Assembly: GCF_963853765.1 (NCBI RefSeq)
Contig: NC_088853.1
Location: 23,498,001 to 23,562,000, forward strand
Direction of reading: 5' to 3'
DNA from: Magallana gigas
Taxonomy: Eukaryota
Length of the DNA: 64,000 bases
Part shown: positions 2,089 through 15,738 of the stretch, one piece after another
Position numbering within the stretch: position 1 is the first letter of the stretch
How the letters are laid out: every line of letters begins with the position of its first letter
The notes under the pieces: generated by a model
The model's input: only the letters and a program-made list of their open reading frames with translations
Told to the model about the DNA's origin: nothing
Database searches by the model: none
Translations under genes and position numbers: made by a program

Positions 2089-3840
2089 ACCGGTTCCTAG
2101 GAACCATCACAACAAAGAAAGAAAGCCGAAGCATGCCCTTTCATTTCGGGTGGTGAGTTTCATCATACGCTATAGTGAGGAATACGGGTTTCCCCTTCCA
2201 GCAGTGCCCCATGGAAATGCATCTGACGAAAATCCAGTCCTTCTGCCAGCATCCTCAACTAAAATTGATATCCATACCAGATATTAATCTGTTTGTGATG
2301 AGAGCAATGAAAGGTATTACATTTGAAATAAAAATATAAATTAAAATTTAGTTTTGCGTGAGCGGCGTTTATGTTCCGATATAAACACCAGAACAATATG
2401 AATTTAAATGTTTTACTATCAAAGGTCTGTAGAACTTTCAACAGTCCCACGGCCCAAACACTGTCATATCTCTGCTGCATCATGCATTTCAGCATTATGG
2501 TTTTGGCGAGATGGCCTGTCATATTCACTGCGATAACTGTGCAGGTTCAAATATTATAAAATACAATAAAAAAATTCTTGAAATGACAAAATCTTAAATC
2601 TACACAATCCCATTGGTCCTTTACATTAGCATTCAATATATTTTCAGGACATAAAAAAAAAATCGCTATGTAATGGCGTACTTTTGCTGGCGGGTAATGG
2701 TCGGGTTACATCGTGAAGTGACGGTTAGATTTCAAATTCCTGGTCACACCAATTGTCTAGTTGATGCTGGATTCGCTCATATTAAGAAGCTCTACATACG
2801 GTAATATCGGTATTGCGTTTGCTTAGGACCCGGCAACACTGTTCAAAAGCCGCGGAAATTTAAGATAAATTGCGCAAGAACTACGGAACGATCATATGCG
2901 TTATATATCACTTATATGTCTGCTAATTTCAGTGGAAAGTCGTCGATGAACGCGATATTTGGCAACATTTATCTTAAACGATCACTTATAGTCCACGCAT
3001 ATTTCAAGCATTGTGCGCATAAGAACCACATTATTTAAGCAAAATTAACGTAACATAGAGCGCATTGCATCGGAAACTCTTACACAAATCCGAGCACTCA
3101 AAACCTTGAATCGCGCATAACGTATATCGGCGGACAATTACAGATGTTCCACGTCAGAAAAAAAACTAGTGTAAATAAATCCTCAAATCGCGGATGTTCA
3201 CGTATCAAGTAAGAATCGAAATTTGTGCGCGTTTTGTGCGTTTACGCAATTTTTGGGCAGTGTGACCGGGCATTAAGATATCTCAGTTTAATCAGTGCAA
3301 ATTTAATTAAGAGAACATACAAAAATTCATTGACATGTATACAAAAATTCCAGGACAGACAATGATTCCCTTTCGGATTTGGTGAGAACGGTAGAAAAGT
3401 CATCGAAAGTTAACAAAGCCGTTATCGTTAATGAAACATTTCAGTGGCGGGACTGGAAGTCCTTCCTTGCCGATGAGTTTTGTCCAATTTATGGCATCAG
3501 AGGCTACCACCACTTCAGATTAAGTGCTCTTAATCCTGGGGTCGTGTTTGCAAAAGAGATTTCTGGGGATGATGAAAGGCCAATCACATTATGCCGCAGC
3601 CCCACCGCTGATTTTTCCAGCAGTACTCTTCCTTTAGTATTAGCCAAAGGTATAGCTAGAATAGTTTGTTTTTGATTCAGAAAAAAATGTAAACATAAGA
3701 CTTAATTTTTAAAAGATTTGTTTTTTTCCAGGCGGCCTCTCTTCTGAGAGACAACGATATTTATATAAAAGTCTGAGACCGTTTGTGCGAGAACATGCGA
3801 GGGATCTGACGTGCCCCGCTCCTACTGAGGAAAAAACTGA
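2089..3840 (+). pseudogene. Degenerate, intron-containing Sola-type DDD transposase (5'-truncated)
   Basis: Exons 2089-2313, ~2435-2544, 2648-2800, 3354-3649, 3732-3840, with GT donors at 2314, 2545, 2801, 3650 and AG acceptors at 2646, 3352, 3730. Motifs: HGPNTVISLLHHAF...HCDNCAG, RYVMAYFCWRVMVGLH, FQIPGHTNCLVDAGF, WRDWKSFL...GIRGYHHFR, GLSSERQRYLY...DLTCPAP*. A stop at ~2285 and a frameshift in the A-run at ~2655 inactivate it. Confidence 0.75.
2826..3272. mobile_element. PIF/Harbinger-type MITE inside an intron of the Sola-like gene
   Basis: Imperfect TIR cccggcaacactg (2829-2841) / cagtgtgaccggg (3258-3270), flanked by TTA at 2823-2825 and 3273-3275. Confidence 0.6.
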
Positions 3841-7478: not shown

Positions 7479-8411
7479 TGTAGCAGGAATGGGTTAAATT
7501 CACGTTATATATTCCCTATTTGCCCCTACTTTTGTTTATAATAATATTTGGAAGTTTCTAGATTATATACTTACTTCCGTGGTTACTATAAATAGGTTTG
7601 TTTTGACATATTGATCGATAATAATCCTTCACACGTGTTCGATCATCATAGGAAATGTCCAGTTTTGTTTATACTTTTCTATTGGTTAACATACCGGAAG
7701 TAACCTTTTTCGGGTGGTGCTAATTACAGTCAAAGGTCATACCCCTACAGTCTATTCACTAGATTTAACGTTATATTTTTCTATTGTCGTGGTTTGCTAT
7801 ATAAAGCCCCGAAATTCGTAGTTTCTTGGGGACTTGTTAAGCATTGATTTGCTGTAAGTTTCTCACTTCTCTAACATGGTTTATTAGATATTTAACAGGT
7901 TGCACCCGTTAGGAGAGTAATTTGATCATTTTGTCGTCGTCATTTGCTCCTGTTGAATTATTTTCGGCCCTTAAACTAAAAGATAAGTGTTAGGTTCTTA
8001 TTAAAAGGGATTTTTGTATTAAACCTAGGCCTTTCCCCCGGTTAGGTGGGCTAGCGTTCCCGTACGCTAGGATGGGGGTGATTTTTGTTGATTATTTTGA
8101 TGGTGGTGTTCATAGGGATTTTTGATAGGAATTTTTGATAGTAACATTTTTGGTCTATACTCGGCAGGAATTTACAATTTTTATCATTATTTTGTTTTTG
8201 TTATTTTCTATAAATATTGTTGTTTGTTGAAGCTGGTGTTTTTCATTACAGTGTGTTGAACGGTGTCAAAAGGTGAAATATCTATTATTTAACTTAAAAT
8301 TAAGACCAAGCAGAATCTCAAATCATAAAGAACCTGGAAAATAAATTATAATACATAGGAAACGGTATACATATTTCAGAGAGTTATTCTGACCAAACCC
8401 GTCCTATTACA
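7479..8411 (+). repeat. 5' LTR (933 bp, TG...CA)
   Basis: Starts TGTAGC and ends ...CTATTACA just before the PBS. TATA-like ctatataaag at ~7797. Matches 15114-15738. Confidence 0.9.
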
Positions 8412-8416
8412 AAAAA

Positions 8417-8434
8417 TGGTGCCGTCTACCAAGG
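8417..8434 (+). promoter_or_regulatory. Primer-binding site, tRNA-His-like
   Basis: TGGTGCCGT... lies 5 nt after the LTR. It is complementary to the 3' end (...ACGGCACCA) of eukaryotic tRNA-His for the first 9 nt, with a partial match beyond. Confidence 0.7.
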
Positions 8435-8566
8435 ATTTGAGCCCGCTGTATTTGGCTTTTTGAGTGATTTTTTGGGGTTGTTGGTAAAACCACTTGTGTA
8501 TTTCACGCCCACGTATTTTTCAGTCAGCTGTTTTGTTATAACCTGGTTCAATAAACATAATCAAAA

Positions 8567-10204
8567 TTGATTGATTTAGATGAAGTTTATAAGAAAAGTC
8601 CACGTACTAAATTATCTGACCGAATTCTAAAAACTGCTGAGTCATACATTGCCCGTGCGCCACGCGTCACAGAACCTGATGTTTACAGAGCACCTGTTCG
8701 AACAATGCATGACACAATAGAAGAGACAGTGTTTTTCAATGACCGATATTATCCGGACACGAGTGGCTTTGTCGATGAAACTACTTTGTCGCAATATGAT
8801 TTAGAGTTAACAGAACCTAAAGAATATTCTGGGACAATAAAAACATAGAGTGGGTTACGCGTACCTGATTCAGAATTTCTAAGGGAAGATATTAGAAAAG
8901 AACTTAGACAATAATTTTTAGAATTTTCAGGTATTTCAGAAAATCACGACACTTCGAGTTATGATCCAAAATTTCAGAGTATGAAATTGGAAACTGAAAA
9001 TAAACATGTTAAAGACATTCGGAAATCAAATCGTGAGTTTGTTACAAGTACTCCAATTAGTTCTGGAGATAAATCTTCATTTTCAAATCAAAATAAAATG
9101 CCTAAAACACCAGCACGCGTACACTTTGACTCGACGTCCACAGATTCCCGTCAATCCCGACGCGACATTCACTCGCGTGAGAGTTCAAGAGATACTTTGG
9201 ACAGAACGTTTTCACAACCTGGTACTCAAAGACACTCTGTTTCAACTCTCAACACTAAGCCGTCCTTGCATGCTTCTCAATTAAACAAGAGTTCCCAGAT
9301 AAATGAGAATTATGAGACCCCGGGCCGAATGTCAAATAATCAGGCAAGGGTACAGGAGTTACCTCCTCGTGAACATTTTGTAAACTCTCATAGACTTTCA
9401 AGAAAAGAAAAAGAACATCAAATTTATGATGGTACAACAGACTTGGAAATTTATTTACTGCATTTTGAATGGGTTGCTAGGTACAACAACTGGACAAGTG
9501 CTGAAAAAGCACAACAGTTGGCCATTAGTTTAAAAGGGGAGGCTCAACAAGTTTTCAGAGATTTGGACCCTTGGGAGATTAGAGAATTTAATGACATTAA
9601 ACAGGTTCTCTTACAGAGATTTAACCCTCCTGGTCGTGAAGCAGCATATCGATGTCAATTTAAAAATCGCAAGCGCATTGAAACTGAGAGCATTTCAGAG
9701 TTTGGTTATGCACTAACACATCTTTCAGCAAAAACGTACCCACAATTAGATAGAGTTGCTAGGGAGACTTATGTCATTGATAAGTTCATTTGTGGTCTTA
9801 ACCATACTGAAATGAAAAAGCATGTTCAATTTAGACACCCCAGATCTGTAGATGAAGCTATTACATTGGCTATTGAATATGAAGCATTTGAGGAGCCCAA
9901 AACAATTCTCAGAAAACCTTTGAGTGAAGAGAAAAGTGTGCATGTTATTTCTGAAACTCCGCAAACTTCTGAAAATTCTGGGAAAGATTTGGCTTCCATA
10001 ATTTCTGAAGAAATGGCTAAACTGATGAGTACGCTCACATCTGAAATAAGATCAATTAAGTCAGAAAGAAGGTTTAAGTGTATATATTGTCAAAGGAGAG
10101 ATCACCCTCATTGGAAATGCCCTAATAAACCAAACTTTAAGAGGGATCAAAATAATGTTCCAACCACTTCATCAATTCAAATTCGGGAAAATAGGTGGGG
10201 TTGA
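8567..10204 (+). pseudogene. gag: Gypsy gag with a CCHC zinc knuckle
   Basis: ORFs 8567-8848 and 8981-10204 are in the same frame, separated by two stops. Capsid-like YDGTTDLEIYLLHFE...LLQRFNP...DKFICGL; knuckle CIYCQRRDHPHWKC (CX2CX4HX4C). Confidence 0.9.
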
Positions 10205-10228
10205 ATTCGAGGCCGACAATTCAGCCCT
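10185..10228 (+). promoter_or_regulatory. Putative -1 ribosomal frameshift signal (G GGA AAA, TAG, stem-loop)
   Basis: Heptamer gggaaaa (10185-10191), TAG (10192-10194), then the hairpin gggttgaatt (10198-10207) / aattcagccc (10218-10227) with one G-U pair. Confidence 0.65.
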
Positions 10229-13200
10229 CAAAACTGGTGAAGAAAACAAACTAACCAATAGACCAATAATTTCATTGAATACAATAAAACCAAGTTGCTT
10301 GTTTGTTGAGGCAAAGATGGATGGTGTTCTAATGAGTTTTCTGGTTGACACAGGTTCTGCAGTTACTATTCTTGATGAGGATATATTTGACATGTTATAT
10401 GGACTGAAAAGCGCAAATAAAACGCTGTTGTGTGCGAAAGGTGAATCAATTCCAATACTGGAAATGTCAAATTTTTCATTTTGTTTATGTGACTCAGATA
10501 CTATCTTTGAGCAAGAGATGATTGTTGGAAAGTTAGAGGGAAATATTAGTATTTTGGGAGTAGACTTCTTGAAGAGTTATTCAGGAGTTATTAATTTCCG
10601 TAATGAAAGTTTGCAGGTTGGCAAACAGATATTTCCTCTTTCACAAACCCCACTAAACTTGCATAGACTTCCAGAATCCGACTCTGTGATACTAATAAAA
10701 TACCCCCTGACACAGAATTCTATTGTAAAGGGCACATTCAAGGGAAACGTGGTACAGATTATGGTTTAGTAGAACCCAAACAAATTGTCAATGTAAATGG
10801 TCTTTTGATGGCTAAAACTTTGGTCAATCCTAAAAAGGATGATATTTCTATTTCACTCCTTAATCTTACAAACAGGTCAGTTAGATTAAATAGAAATACT
10901 TGCATTGTTTATCTAGAGACAGTGGAGAGTGTGCATTATATCGAGCCTCCATTTCAAACTCATTCTAAAATTTCAAAACTCCCAGATCATTTGTCTACAT
11001 TGTTAAATGAAGTTTCAGATGAATTGAATGGAAAAGAAAAAGATCAAGTTAAAAACTTATTGACAGAATTTGAGGATATTTTTATGAAACCAGATGGAAA
11101 ATTGGGTCACACAGATTAGGTTGAACATAACATTGATACTGGGAATGGAAATCCAATTAAAATACCTCCACGTAGACTATCTCCGAAGCAAAAAGAAATT
11201 GTTGACACTGAACATCAGAAAATGCTTGAACAAAATATCATAGAGCCTAGTAATAGTTCCTGGTCTGCTCCTGTTGTTTTTGGTTACAAAGTCTGATGGG
11301 TCTACCAAATTTTGCATAGATTTTTGCAAACTTAATTCAATAACAAAGAAGGATGCATATCCCTTGAACAGAATTGATGATGCACTTGAAGCATTATCAG
11401 GTGCACAATGAATTTCCACTTTAGCTAGTGGGTATTGGCAATGTCCATTGAAAGAGACTGACAAAAGTAAAACCGCATTTACCACTCACAGGGGATTATA
11501 CCATTTCAATGTTATGCCCTTTGGGTTATACAATACCCCTGCAACATTTTCACGCCTTATGAATTTAGTGTTGGGTAGACTCATTTGGACGAGATGCTTA
11601 TGTTATTTAGATGACGTCATTGAATTTGGCAGTACATTTGAAACTGCATTGAGAAATCTCAAAGATGTTTTTGAATGTTTACGGAAAGCTCATCTGAAAC
11701 TCAAACCTAAAAAGTGTACATTGTTTCAAACTGAAGTTGCATATTTAGGCCACCGGGTTTCTAAAGCTGGCATCAGCTGTGACCCTTAGACAATTTCTGC
11801 TGTTCAAAATTGGCCAATTCCAACCAATGTTACGGAAGTTCGATCATTTTTAGGTACTGCGGGTTATTACCGAAAATTCATTCCAAATTTCTCAACCATA
11901 GCATCTCCCTTAAGTCAACTCACGAGGAAAAAAATAAAAGGTTCAAGTGGGATGAAAACTGTCAGTAAGCTTTTGATGAGCTGAAGTTATTGTTAGTTTC
12001 TGCACCAATATTGGCATACCCTATTGCTGATGGAAAGTTCGTACTTGACACAGATGCAAGTGATACTGGGTTAGGTGGTGTTTTGTCCCAAATTCAAAAT
12101 GGGGAAGAAAAGGTTATAGCCTATGCAAGTGTTTCTTTACTAAACTCTCAGAGAAAATACTGTAGAACCCATAAAGAACTTTTAGCAATTGTTACATTTT
12201 TGAAACATTTCAGATATTATTTGTTTGGTCAGAAATTTTTACTGAGAACAGACCATGCTTCTCTCAAATGGCTTAAGAACTTTAAAAATCCCGAGGGGAT
12301 GATTGCTCGTTGGATAAGCATTGTAGATATGTATGACTTTGAAATAGAACATCGAACATCGAACAACTTTACACTTAAATACAGATGGTTGATCCCGAAT
12401 TCCAGTTAAACGCAAATGTACCAGAGAAAAATGCCCCGATTGTGATTCTCCGGAACACTTCGCAATTAATCATGGTTTGAACTTAGAGGTTTTGGCTGAA
12501 GAAGGAAAATTTCCCCACGAAGAATCTAAGCATTCTAAGCAGGGAATCTATCCTGTGCAAGCCATTTAAAATACTTCTGATGTTTCAAATTGGGTAGAAT
12601 CCCGGGGTCCTGATCAAATAAAAGAATGGCAAAATGAAGATGGCAATGTTGGCAAATTTAAAACACTCAAATCAACAACTGATCATAAAACAAACAGACA
12701 AACAATGGGGTCATTCTCCTATGAAGTTAGAATTTTATGTCAAACGTGGGAAGAATTAGAAATCAAACATGATGGGATACTTTACAGAACAAGTGAAAAA
12801 GATCCACAGGGAAACATCTTAAATCAAATTGTAGTGCCTCAAATTATTAGAGAAAAGATTTTAGAATCCCTCCATAATTCCAGAATATCAGGTCATTTAG
12901 GCAGAGACAAAACATATGAATCTATTAAGAGAAAATTCTATTGGCCTGGAATGTCCCACGATGCAAAACTTTGGTGTCAATCATGTGATCTTTGTGCACG
13001 TCGAAAACCAGGTCCAGGTTTTGGGAAATTTCCACTTCAATCTTCTCTTCTACAATCTACAAAACCTTTAGATAGAATTGCAATAGATATTTTGGGTGGT
13101 TTACCTAAAACTAATAATGGAAATGAATATATAATTATTGTTGGGGATTATTTTTCAAAGTGGAAAGAAGCTTATGCTGTTTTAGATCATACTGCACTTA

Positions 13201-14093
13201 CAGTTGCTGATAAAATTGCTACTGAATTCATTTCACACTATGGTGTTCCAAATCAGATACATACAGATCAAGGGAGAGAATTTGAGAGTGAATTATTTTC
13301 TGAACTTTGTAGACTCCTGAGTATTGAGAAAACAAGAACCATTCCTTATCAACCCCAGTCTGATGGACTTGTAGAGCGTTTTAATAGAACCATAATTGCC
13401 ATGTTGTCTGCTTTTGTTAATGAAAATAAAGATGACTGGGATGATCATTTGCCTTACTTAAGATAGCTTATAGAGCTACCCCCATATTAGTACAAAATGT
13501 AGTCCAAATTTACTTATCTTGGTAGAGAAATATCTTGTCCTCTAGATATTATGGTTGGAATACATCCTGAAAATCCCCGGAAATTGTGTCCTTCAATGTA
13601 TGTCAAATGGTTAGAAATTGCAATGAATAATGCTTTTGAATTTGCTCATGATAATTTGTGCATTGCAGCTCAGAGACAAAAACAATATTATGATAAAGGG
13701 TTAAAACCAAGATACTATGAGCCTCGTGATTGGGTTTGGAGATGGTATTTACCTGCGGTTTCCAATAAATTAGGTCAAGGTTGGACAGGACCATATCTGG
13801 TAATAAAAAGAATTTCAGATGTTACATACGAAATACAGCTTAATTCTAAAAAAAATCCAATAGTCGTCCATGTGGATCATCTGAAACCATTCCAAGGGAG
13901 ACAACCTCCTATCAATTGGCTGGAAGAGGTGGAGAGCTTCCAGGCTGATGAAGAAAATCTGAGCGAAACTTCCTCTTCACAAATTTATGATGATTCTCTG
14001 GTGCAACCTGTACATAATTCTCCTGTGAAAACAAGAACTGGGAGAATAGTTAAGCCAAGAGAGATCTACACACTCTCCATAATTTGCAGATAA
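10185..14093 (+). pseudogene. pol: Gypsy pol (protease, RT, RNase H, integrase), multiple stops and frameshifts
   Basis: FLVDTGSAV (aspartic protease); VMPFGL...YLDD (RT); VLDTDAS...ELLAIV...TDHASL (RNase H); GHLGRDKT..CQSCDLC, IAIDIL, IHTDQGREF, GLVERFN (integrase). Split over the ORF-track fragments from 10155 to 14093. Confidence 0.95.
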
Positions 14094-14319
14094 GTTAAAA
14101 ATTAAACCAAATTCTTTATATCAATATCTTTTATGCAGAAATATACATTCGATTAATGGTTATTTTTTGTTTGTAAGAAGGGGATTGGAATATATATAAA
14201 CAGCTGGTCTGTTGAGCGCTGTTTTCCAAACCCTGTAATTACTAGTACACTCCGACAATAAATAATGATCTGTATATATTGTACGTACTTAATTGTCATA
14301 AATAATTTCAGAAATATCT

Positions 14320-14874
14320 ATGGAGGAGTTTGTTCTGGAACTGTTTGTCAGTGAGGAAGAATTAATGGAGTTAGACAGGAATATCCGTCCCCTCTGGCAG
14401 GAAGGAGGAATGAGATGTCCAGCCGACGGATGCGACGTCTTCCTAGAATGCATTACAAAATGTCGGAGACATTGGTCGGAGATCCATACTGAGTTTATCT
14501 ATATATATTCCAGTGCACCCTGTGTCGGTTTGCGACCATGAGAAGAAATCAAATCATCAGACATGAGTCGGGTACATCCAAACCAGCCGACCGAGGGCCT
14601 GGAGCCGAGGACCTTTTTAAACAGGAAGTACAGGAATCCAGGGAATGGCCTTATGCCAATTTGTGAAATCTCAGACAATAGAAGGCAGTTTAGAGATCAA
14701 GAGGCCAAGCGGCGGAGGTCACTTGTTGCAGGGATCGAGACCTCTTTAATAAAAGAGGACACCAACTCCCCCGACCAAGTGGTGTTCCCGTACGACACAG
14801 AGACCGTTAAAGTGACCAAGAAACTCTGGGGGCCAAAGAGCAAAGAGAAAGTTGTGAGATTGAGGAACTGTTAA
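14320..14874 (+). pseudogene. Extra ORF3 of the Gypsy element encoding two C2H2 zinc fingers
   Basis: ORFs 14320-14541 and 14563-14874 share a frame. Finger 1 is CPADGC-x12-HWSEIH. Finger 2, CTLC-RFATMRRNQIIR-H..RVH, lies in the -1 frame between two compensating indels (~14505 and ~14560). Acceptor-like tttcAG at 14310-14311. Confidence 0.65.
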
Positions 14875-15100
14875 ATTAGATTGAGTTATCTACACAGTTA
14901 ATACAAATATTTGGTCAATATAGTTTTGTTTTATGTTCTAATAATGATTGTTAATCACTGGCCATATATTGATTTATATCATTGTTGAATTTTATATTTT
15001 GTTTGTAGGGAAAGAAAAATGTTTGTTTTATTTTTATATTAATTCCTGATATGATTATGTAAAGTTGTCCTTAAAATAAATGATTATATCATTTATTCTT

Positions 15101-15113
15101 AAGCAGGGGGGAG
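15101..15113 (+). promoter_or_regulatory. Polypurine tract
   Basis: aagcagggggga g immediately precedes the 3' LTR TG. Confidence 0.85.
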
Positions 15114-15738
15114 TGTAGCAGGAATGGGTTGAATTCACGTTATATATTCCCTATTTGCCCCTACTTTTGTTAATAATAATATTTGGAAGTTTCTAGTTTA
15201 TTTACTTACTTCCTTGGTTACTATAAATAGGTTTGTTTTGACATATAGATCGATAATAATCCTTCACACGTGTTCGATCATCATAGGAAATGTCCAGTTT
15301 TGTTTATACTTTTCTATTGGTTAATATACCGGAAGTAACCTTTTTTGGGTGGTGCTAATTACAGTCAAAGGTCATACCGGTACCCTGCAGTCTAAACACT
15401 ATATTTAACGTTATATTTTTTCTATCGTCATGGTTTGCTATATAAAGCCCCGAAATTCGTAGTTTCTTGGGGACTTGTTAAGCATTGATTTGCTGTAAGT
15501 TTCTCACTTCTCTAACATGGTTTATTAGATATTTAACAGGTTGCACCCGTTAGGAGAATCATTTGATCATTTTGTCGTCGTCATTTGCTCCTGTTGAATT
15601 ATTTTCGGCCCTTAAACTAAAAGTTAAATGTATGGTTCTTATTAAAAGGGATTTTTGTATTAAACCTAGGCCTTTCCCCCGGCTAGGTGGGATAGCGTTC
15701 CCGTACGATACGATGGGGGGGGGGGGGGTGATTTTTGT
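15114..15738 (+). repeat. 3' LTR, missing its last ~320 bp
   Basis: Matches 7479-8088 (about 5% different by eye), then joins directly to tandem-unit sequence. Confidence 0.9.

Follow-up and report, generated by a model that had tools for sequence, protein, structure and literature searches.

Accessory regulators are known from complex retroviruses and from few retrotransposons (Cer1, with its CERV protein). In Retroviridae, foamy-virus Tas and lentiviral Tat and Rev are the products of small regulatory genes that lie near the 3' long terminal repeat (LTR) and are expressed from sub-genomic RNA. Cer1 of Caenorhabditis elegans is a Ty3/Gypsy element that encodes CERV, a non-env product with a cysteine-based motif, in the stretch from pol to the 3' LTR; CERV is made from a spliced mRNA and regulates the expression of its own element (PMC10309623). 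Bdelloid LTR retrotransposons carry third open reading frames (ORFs) of GDSL esterase, DEDDy exonuclease, transmembrane and coiled-coil types, located downstream of pol as separate units that are not env, family-specific and repeatedly acquired (PMC5408684). Additional ORFs of plant LTR elements (PMC7264820) and accessory domains of LTR elements (PMC6338049) have also been described. Env and env-like third ORFs in the same position, in sense orientation and with an acceptor-like site, occur in errantiviruses (PMC13524379), Boudicca/Saci-3 (PMC2582038), plant elements (aORFs, PMC7264820) and Athila (PMC2410132). VANC anti-silencing proteins of the VANDAL elements of Arabidopsis are element-encoded and act by family on their own elements (PMC5735166). 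Here we describe a third ORF (ORF3) of a Gypsy element found in a 64,000-nucleotide stretch of the Magallana gigas genome (contig NC_088853.1, positions 23,498,001 to 23,562,000, forward strand), called the window below and numbered from its first base. ORF3 (14320..14874, +) is a zinc-finger accessory gene, which an earlier sequence-only reading of the window had noticed.

ORF3 is a clade-wide gene of one Gypsy branch with a fixed place between the integrase and the polypurine tract, and its protein is under purifying selection. It resembles CERV in the type of element, the position and the cysteine-based motif, but CERV is a 517-aa protein with a C4-type loop and H, M and G domains, whereas ORF3 proteins comprise 150-200 aa (about 320-350 in two families) and have two C2H2 fingers; moreover, the RNA-export role of CERV was shown experimentally, whereas a regulatory role of ORF3 is inferred (PMC10309623). 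With the bdelloid ORF3s it shares the location downstream of pol, the organization as a separate unit and the non-env nature, but that text contains neither "zinc" nor "C2H2", and its ORFs are family-specific (PMC5408684), whereas here one gene marks a whole clade. Unlike env and env-like ORF3s, the gene is small, lacks a signal peptide or membrane segment and encodes zinc fingers. We consider ORF3 to be an accessory gene for a small soluble double-C2H2 protein that is likely translated from a sub-genomic mRNA and that would act in the nucleus to raise or protect the transcription of its own element in a family-specific manner; the rough probability of this reading is 0.5. Under it, a separate, probably spliced, mRNA would yield the protein, which would enter the nucleus and act on the element's own DNA. 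Finger 2 would read a family-specific site in the element, the acidic N-terminus would serve as the effector, and the result would be a positive action on LTR transcription, either as a transactivator or as an anti-silencer. Such action by family would be similar to that of VANC, but VANC belongs to plant DNA transposons and has tandem target motifs (PMC5735166), none of which were found in four LTRs here.

A search of the genome (564 Mb, 29 contigs) for sister copies gave at least 22 matches at the DNA level and at least 51 at the protein level. In five of the ten near-complete copies of the family (L053, L054, L055, L057, L060), ORF3 was open over 184 aa; among the other five, one lacked the first ATG, one ended 12 codons early, two contained stops, and the window copy was frameshifted. 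Six copies are young, with LTR pairs 99.3-100% identical in the five that have both LTRs in the fetched stretch. The ratio of nonsynonymous to synonymous substitution rates (dN/dS) for ORF3 of the window and L053 was 0.13 (bootstrap 0.07-0.22). Across 23 pairs from five families it ranged from 0.06 to 0.27 in 20 and was 0.31, 0.39 and 0.52 in three, which are outliers or young pairs with wide intervals. Since ORF3 is open in half of the near-complete copies and evolves at a dN/dS of 0.13, it is not a chance frame. The sequence-only reading had placed an element-encoded third ORF in the env position and suggested intact sister ORFs with dN/dS below 1 as a check, and both were borne out. Two UniRef entries of Magallana gigas, K1PNR1 and K1QEB3 (P0003 and P0005, 82-83% identity), are ORF3 copies annotated as host C2H2 or uncharacterised genes.

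The window ORF3 begins with the ATG at 14320 (MEEFVLELFVSEEELMEL) and ends with a stop at 14872-14874; its protein is 76% identical to that of the open copy P0001. Comparison with L053 located the two compensating indels suspected earlier, one in a TA run near 14509-14510 and the other at 14562/14563. The LTRs of the window element differ at 24 of 606 aligned bases (about 4%). This copy is an old, decayed insertion that makes no ORF3 protein.

Of the 40 loci fetched around ORF3 matches, 23 had an integrase upstream on the same strand, one was rearranged, and 16 were fragments without pol. A cluster of pol-less fragments at 53-65 Mb of C1 was considered as a capture or PIWI-interacting RNA (piRNA) locus and rejected: flanks are common to L064/65/66/70/72/73 and to L078/80/90, so the fragments go back to a few old insertions multiplied by segmental duplication. 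The gene was found after the integrase in nine families of the Magallana gigas genome. In a prospective test, copies were chosen on integrase similarity alone (23 of 150 listed). All five copies with at least 60% integrase similarity carried an ORF3 homologue after the integrase (profile E 2e-43 to 1e-9), one from a family already in the profile and four from three new families, and ORF3 was found in none of 18 Gypsy copies at 45-55% integrase similarity, 16 of which read through to the 3' LTR. In the reverse transcriptase (RT)-RNase H tree of copies from this genome (28 rows after 8 near-duplicates were dropped from 36, midpoint root), the 10 ORF3 bearers formed one side of a 100/100 branch. 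The ORF3 tree (12 rows) was poorly resolved and showed no supported conflict with it.

Outside this genome, the profile search at E <=1e-10 yielded 619 representatives; many are proteins of 120-240 aa that stand alone. Most are unnamed, and the named ones come from Argopecten, Mizuhopecten, Pecten, Mytilus and Gigantopelta. Gene models of Pecten and Mytilus contain an integrase end followed by ORF3. Among 17 metagenome contigs chosen by the integrase C-terminus, five carried ORF3 downstream, all of them among the nine with more than 1.2 kb of downstream sequence; in L130 the sequence downstream of the integrase continues without ORF3. Viral contigs contained no relative of the integrase end. 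The related Gypsy lineage L137 has a different two-finger frame after the integrase (2349-3635). Longer variants of ORF3 are present in L094 (7148-8095, about 316 aa) and L096 (minus strand, about 347 aa); they contain low-complexity repeats, and their C-terminus is charged and resembles a coiled coil. That ORF3 is a one-off captured host fragment, or a frame that is open by chance and does nothing for the element, has a probability close to zero. This view could draw on the similar domains of host-like mollusc proteins and on the broken state of the window copy, but it is refuted by homologues in nine families and other hosts, always in the same place and with dN/dS far below 1. The capture scenario, named in the sequence-only reading as one that would overturn it, is thus contradicted.

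The protein starts with a segment (14320..14385, +) that, as had been noted, is acidic and that is conserved in element ORF3s (alignment A1); in P0001, a natural open copy, residues 1-30 carry a net charge of -8. Finger 1, C-x4-C-x12-H-W-x3-H (14416..14487, +), was found in the ATG frame, and its W is present in 66 of 78 homologues. Finger 2, C-x2-C-x12-H-x4-H (14514..14577, +), extends across the second break of the window copy: the part up to the first His lies in the shifted frame (14514-14564), as described earlier, and the last His is back in the first frame. The domain is closed by the motif N-x-x-[YF]-x-x-P (14620..14640, +), with N in 74, Y or F in 76 and P in 73 of the 78 homologues. 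Conservation in this set reaches at least 90% at C33, C38, H51, H56, C65, C68, H81, N101 and P107. The spacing C-x2,4-C-x12-H-x3,5-H is kept, with seven of the eight ligands reaching this level and H86 invariant in A1. Among Pfam families, zf-H2C2_5 matched P0001 with E 2.9e-5, below its curated cut-off, zf-C2H2_16 matched the shifted frame of the window with E 0.002, and weak likeness to the double fingers of OrsD, ZNF462, ZHX and POGZ was seen. The AlphaFold2 model (mean pLDDT 89.9, pTM 0.64) contains finger helices at residues 45-56 and 75-85, a strand at 96-100 and a basic, arginine-rich helix at 119-137; two C2H2-type fingers followed by a closing strand and a basic helix are thus predicted. 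Nearly all structural neighbours are C2H2 proteins, including 2LVH (Z 5.3), CTCF (4.5) and Tramtrack 2DRP (4.4), and Foldseek gave no match at E 0.001 in the PDB and viral sets. The best 19-residue Kyte-Doolittle mean was 0.44 in P0001, and only 3 of 78 homologues exceeded 1.5. Since a membrane segment is missing and the N-terminus is acidic, the product, judging from its sequence, is small, soluble and not env, in agreement with the sequence-only reading.

Positions -1, 2, 3 and 6 of the finger 2 helix, numbered by the established C2H2 convention, are R, N, Q and R; among the 78 homologues, R occurs at -1 in 28, Q at +3 in 24 and R at +6 in 40. The corresponding residues 74, 76, 77 and 80 are the same in young and older copies of the family and vary from family to family. 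Several results weigh against the regulatory reading favoured here. Finger 1 has no conserved base-contacting residues, and every fold match scores weakly (Foldseek E >=0.03, Z <8). In the Pfam C2H2 check proposed in the sequence-only reading, the best score (zf-H2C2_5, 24 bits) lay below the curated cut-off of 27. No repeated candidate binding motif was found in four LTR-leaders, where 9-mers occurred at most twice. In addition, two host-like proteins join the domain to RRM or G-patch, which points to RNA.

The unit of two fingers and the closing motif is also present in long host-like proteins with 2-21 repeats (P0009, P0010, P0013, P0019, P0030, P0087), two of which are named, from Sinanodonta and Gigantopelta; no Pfam family covers it. 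The acidic N-terminus is a feature of stand-alone ORF3s, since host-like repeats mostly match from profile position 11-34 onward. It is possible that the repeat proteins are a source or a co-option of the ORF3 unit. No multi-repeat host gene was evident in this genome among the 31 of 36 matches looked at, and the Atlas cluster search returned only unnamed or generic C2H2 clusters. The compact unit with its H-W and closing motif, its weak likeness to OrsD, ZNF462, ZHX and POGZ, its multiplication up to 21 times in host-like proteins and its fast sequence turnover could also suit fingers that serve as a protein-binding module in another interaction with the host, such as a silencing suppressor, restriction of sister copies or an addiction factor. 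We find this quite improbable: the amino acids do not directly point to positive selection (dN/dS about 0.13), and no partner is known.

In 11 of 12 lineages, a T-rich tract with AG precedes the ORF3 ATG by 0-8 bases, whereas their spacers would lead one to expect 1.3; the lineages are related, and the rule was adjusted once, after a stricter version missed F053 and L094. In the window, the AT-rich spacer (14083..14319, +) includes GTAAGA at 14173-14178, a TATA-like box at 14193-14200 and the acceptor-like TTTCAG, with AG at 14310-14311. The AG reported in the sequence-only reading is therefore real, although it precedes the ATG by 8 bases rather than 9. GTAAGA is also in its place, but the donor role suggested for it gained no support: it lies upstream of the TATA-like box, two of four other families (F071 and F074) have nothing matching it in their spacers, and no joint was found. 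In L137, an acceptor-like AG is followed by the fingers with no ATG before them, so this frame would need an upstream exon. From these sequence features, the ORF3 mRNA is likely spliced to the AG before the ATG; an internal promoter in the spacer may instead be the source of this mRNA.

The transcript data speak against splicing. In 8 of 24 listed runs, aligned to L053:518-8313, no spliced joint into the acceptor was seen, although spliced reads into 14312 had been proposed earlier as a check, and contigs of six runs cross the acceptor unspliced. Six of these eight runs were contigs, the RNA origin of four was a guess, and depth over ORF3 was 0-2.7 in the two raw-read runs; because the query contained the spacer, the choice of runs favoured unspliced holders. 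Higher contig depth over ORF3 in X3, X5 and X7 was set aside, the runs having been chosen for covering the query. Spliced retrocopies starting at the acceptor were absent among the at least 22 DNA matches, and no conserved donor was found in the spacers of five families.

The conserved acceptor also implies that the element would face intron retention, the problem solved by CERV (PMC10309623), and ORF3 could be a Rev- or CERV-like factor that binds unspliced element RNA and enables its nuclear exit or escape from splicing. The arginine-rich helix 119-137 of the model and the RRM and G-patch fusions would fit such a function. It appears unlikely, because this problem presupposes splicing, which was seen in none of the eight runs, the finger 2 helix residues are of the DNA type, and no Rfam element was found in the window copy; besides, the cysteine loop described for CERV is of the C4 type rather than C2H2 (PMC10309623). 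A module for integration targeting, in which ORF3 is joined to or binds the integrase and steers insertion like a chromodomain, is very unlikely. The Pecten and Mytilus gene models do join the integrase end to ORF3, but may be ab initio joins. The AG-to-ATG distance is 2, 5 or 8, i.e., in one phase, in 7 of 11 lineages, but the phase is not fixed, because distances of 0 and 4 occur in the other four. There is no conserved donor at the pol end, and in five families ORF3 is separated from pol by the pol stop and a spacer of 181-938 bases, with no in-frame integrase C-terminal domain.

The finding of fast, mostly silent and sharply bounded divergence of ORF3 concerns the nucleotide level. Group differences, defined as those shared between the six young and four older copies, amounted to 59 per 555 sites in ORF3, 9 per 1280 in integrase, 2 per 509 in RT-RNase H, 1 per 229 in the spacer, 9 per 232 in the 3' untranslated stretch and 12 per 946 in the LTR. 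The excess begins at the eighth base after the ORF3 ATG and fades about 50 bases beyond the stop. Of the 43 changed ORF3 codons, 27 were silent; in pol, 13 of 735 codons changed. Third positions evolved 2-6 times faster in ORF3 in all five families tested: the divergence was 30% vs 4.7% in pol for the window family, 25.5% vs 5.2% for F071, 22-34% vs 5-6% in LTRs for F074, 3-6% and 16% vs 0.4-2.5% and 4% for F087, and 15-18% vs 6.5% in LTRs for F075, where the spacer and the 3' end also reached 7-16%. One pol comparison (L092) was not significant. Contigs of run X10, from other samples, agreed with this, differing at 18 of 4575 gag-pol bases and at 18 of 840 bases over ORF3. The A+T content of four-fold sites was 75-80% in pol and 50-66% in ORF3.

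Private changes per site were alike (0.033 vs 0.025 and 0.024), which places the origin of the excess in the replicating lineage, and post-insertion decay was rejected as its cause. CpG decay was rejected as well, since non-CpG divergence was 14.9% vs 2.7% and 14.4% vs 3.3%, with a weaker pair at 9.5% vs 5.1%. One-way A-to-G or G-to-A editing was unsupported (young branch: A>G 6, G>A 8, C>T 5, T>C 2), as were frozen silent sites in pol, where four-fold sites are near saturation between families. Old-type bases were scattered in young copies at 12 of 27 variable sites in ORF3 vs 6 of 35 in pol. This pattern suggests recombination in ORF3, although a recombination test (291 of 2775 site pairs incompatible) showed no decay with distance (p 0.9). 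The fast divergence may be caused by module exchange, as in Athila, where the third ORF was exchanged between families (PMC2410132), by escape from piRNAs, whose activity against Gypsy in oysters has been described (PMC6128900), or by local hypermutation. A broader proposal remains doubtful: that a mollusc-wide Gypsy clade encodes a family-specific zinc-finger transactivator or anti-silencer whose gene changes its nucleotides about 10 times faster than the remainder of the element while the protein is kept, through small-RNA escape of an early mRNA or a new local process of mutation or exchange, and that hosts multiplied its domain up to 21 times. With the bounded silent acceleration as a measurable signature, the idea that transposons evade small-RNA silencing by local sequence change becomes open to test.

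Named mollusc Gypsy clades include MolGy1-16, C-clade and Cigr-1 (PMC6238403). The word "zinc" was absent from the main texts of two mollusc surveys (PMC6238403, PMC10294476), the env survey PMC13524379, PMC2582038 and an annelid survey (PMC8220671). A third ORF of C2H2 type was not found described for this Gypsy clade in the main texts considered; Repbase/Dfam entries may have it annotated. If the proposed role is true, a small C2H2 gene of a whole Gypsy clade, present in oysters and, via homologues and gene models, in scallops, mussels and a snail, would represent a new accessory type, at present listed in protein databases among host "C2H2 proteins" without a name of its own. What is new here is the rate signature of ORF3 on top of the known class of non-env third ORFs.

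The window element has an LTR pair, a primer-binding site, a polypurine tract, and gag followed by protease (PR), RT, RNase H and integrase (Pfam), and thus belongs to Ty3/Gypsy. The 5' LTR (7479..8411, +; TG...CA) is 94.5% identical to the LTR of L053. The primer-binding site TGGTGCCGT (8417..8435, +), which may be tRNA-His-like, follows the LTR here and in L053, L055, L058, L071 and L087; the site of L074 (1562-1585) is unlike that of the other ORF3 families examined. The gag gene (8571..10204, +; Retrotrans_gag, E 2e-8) is broken at its 5' end, with about 95 bases missing relative to L053. The pol gene (10050..14082, +) contains stops and frameshifts and matches RVT_1, RT_RNaseH, Integrase_H2C2, rve and Integrase_p58_C. 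Downstream of ORF3, a 3' untranslated stretch with the polypurine tract at about 15101-15113 (14875..15113, +), a layout common to five families, leads to the 3' LTR (15114..15738, +), which is truncated. In L075/L076 and L085/L086, full-length elements about 100% alike are arranged head-to-tail with one LTR common to both.

In the rest of the window (15749-64000), a unit of about 20 kb is repeated three times in tandem, and the first unit starts at the cut-off of the element's 3' LTR. An open frame on the minus strand at 59829-60398 appears to resemble a fragment of the integrase of another retroelement. Another, at 54845-55348 (minus strand), has a cysteine pattern that resembles that of a PAN/Apple domain exon.
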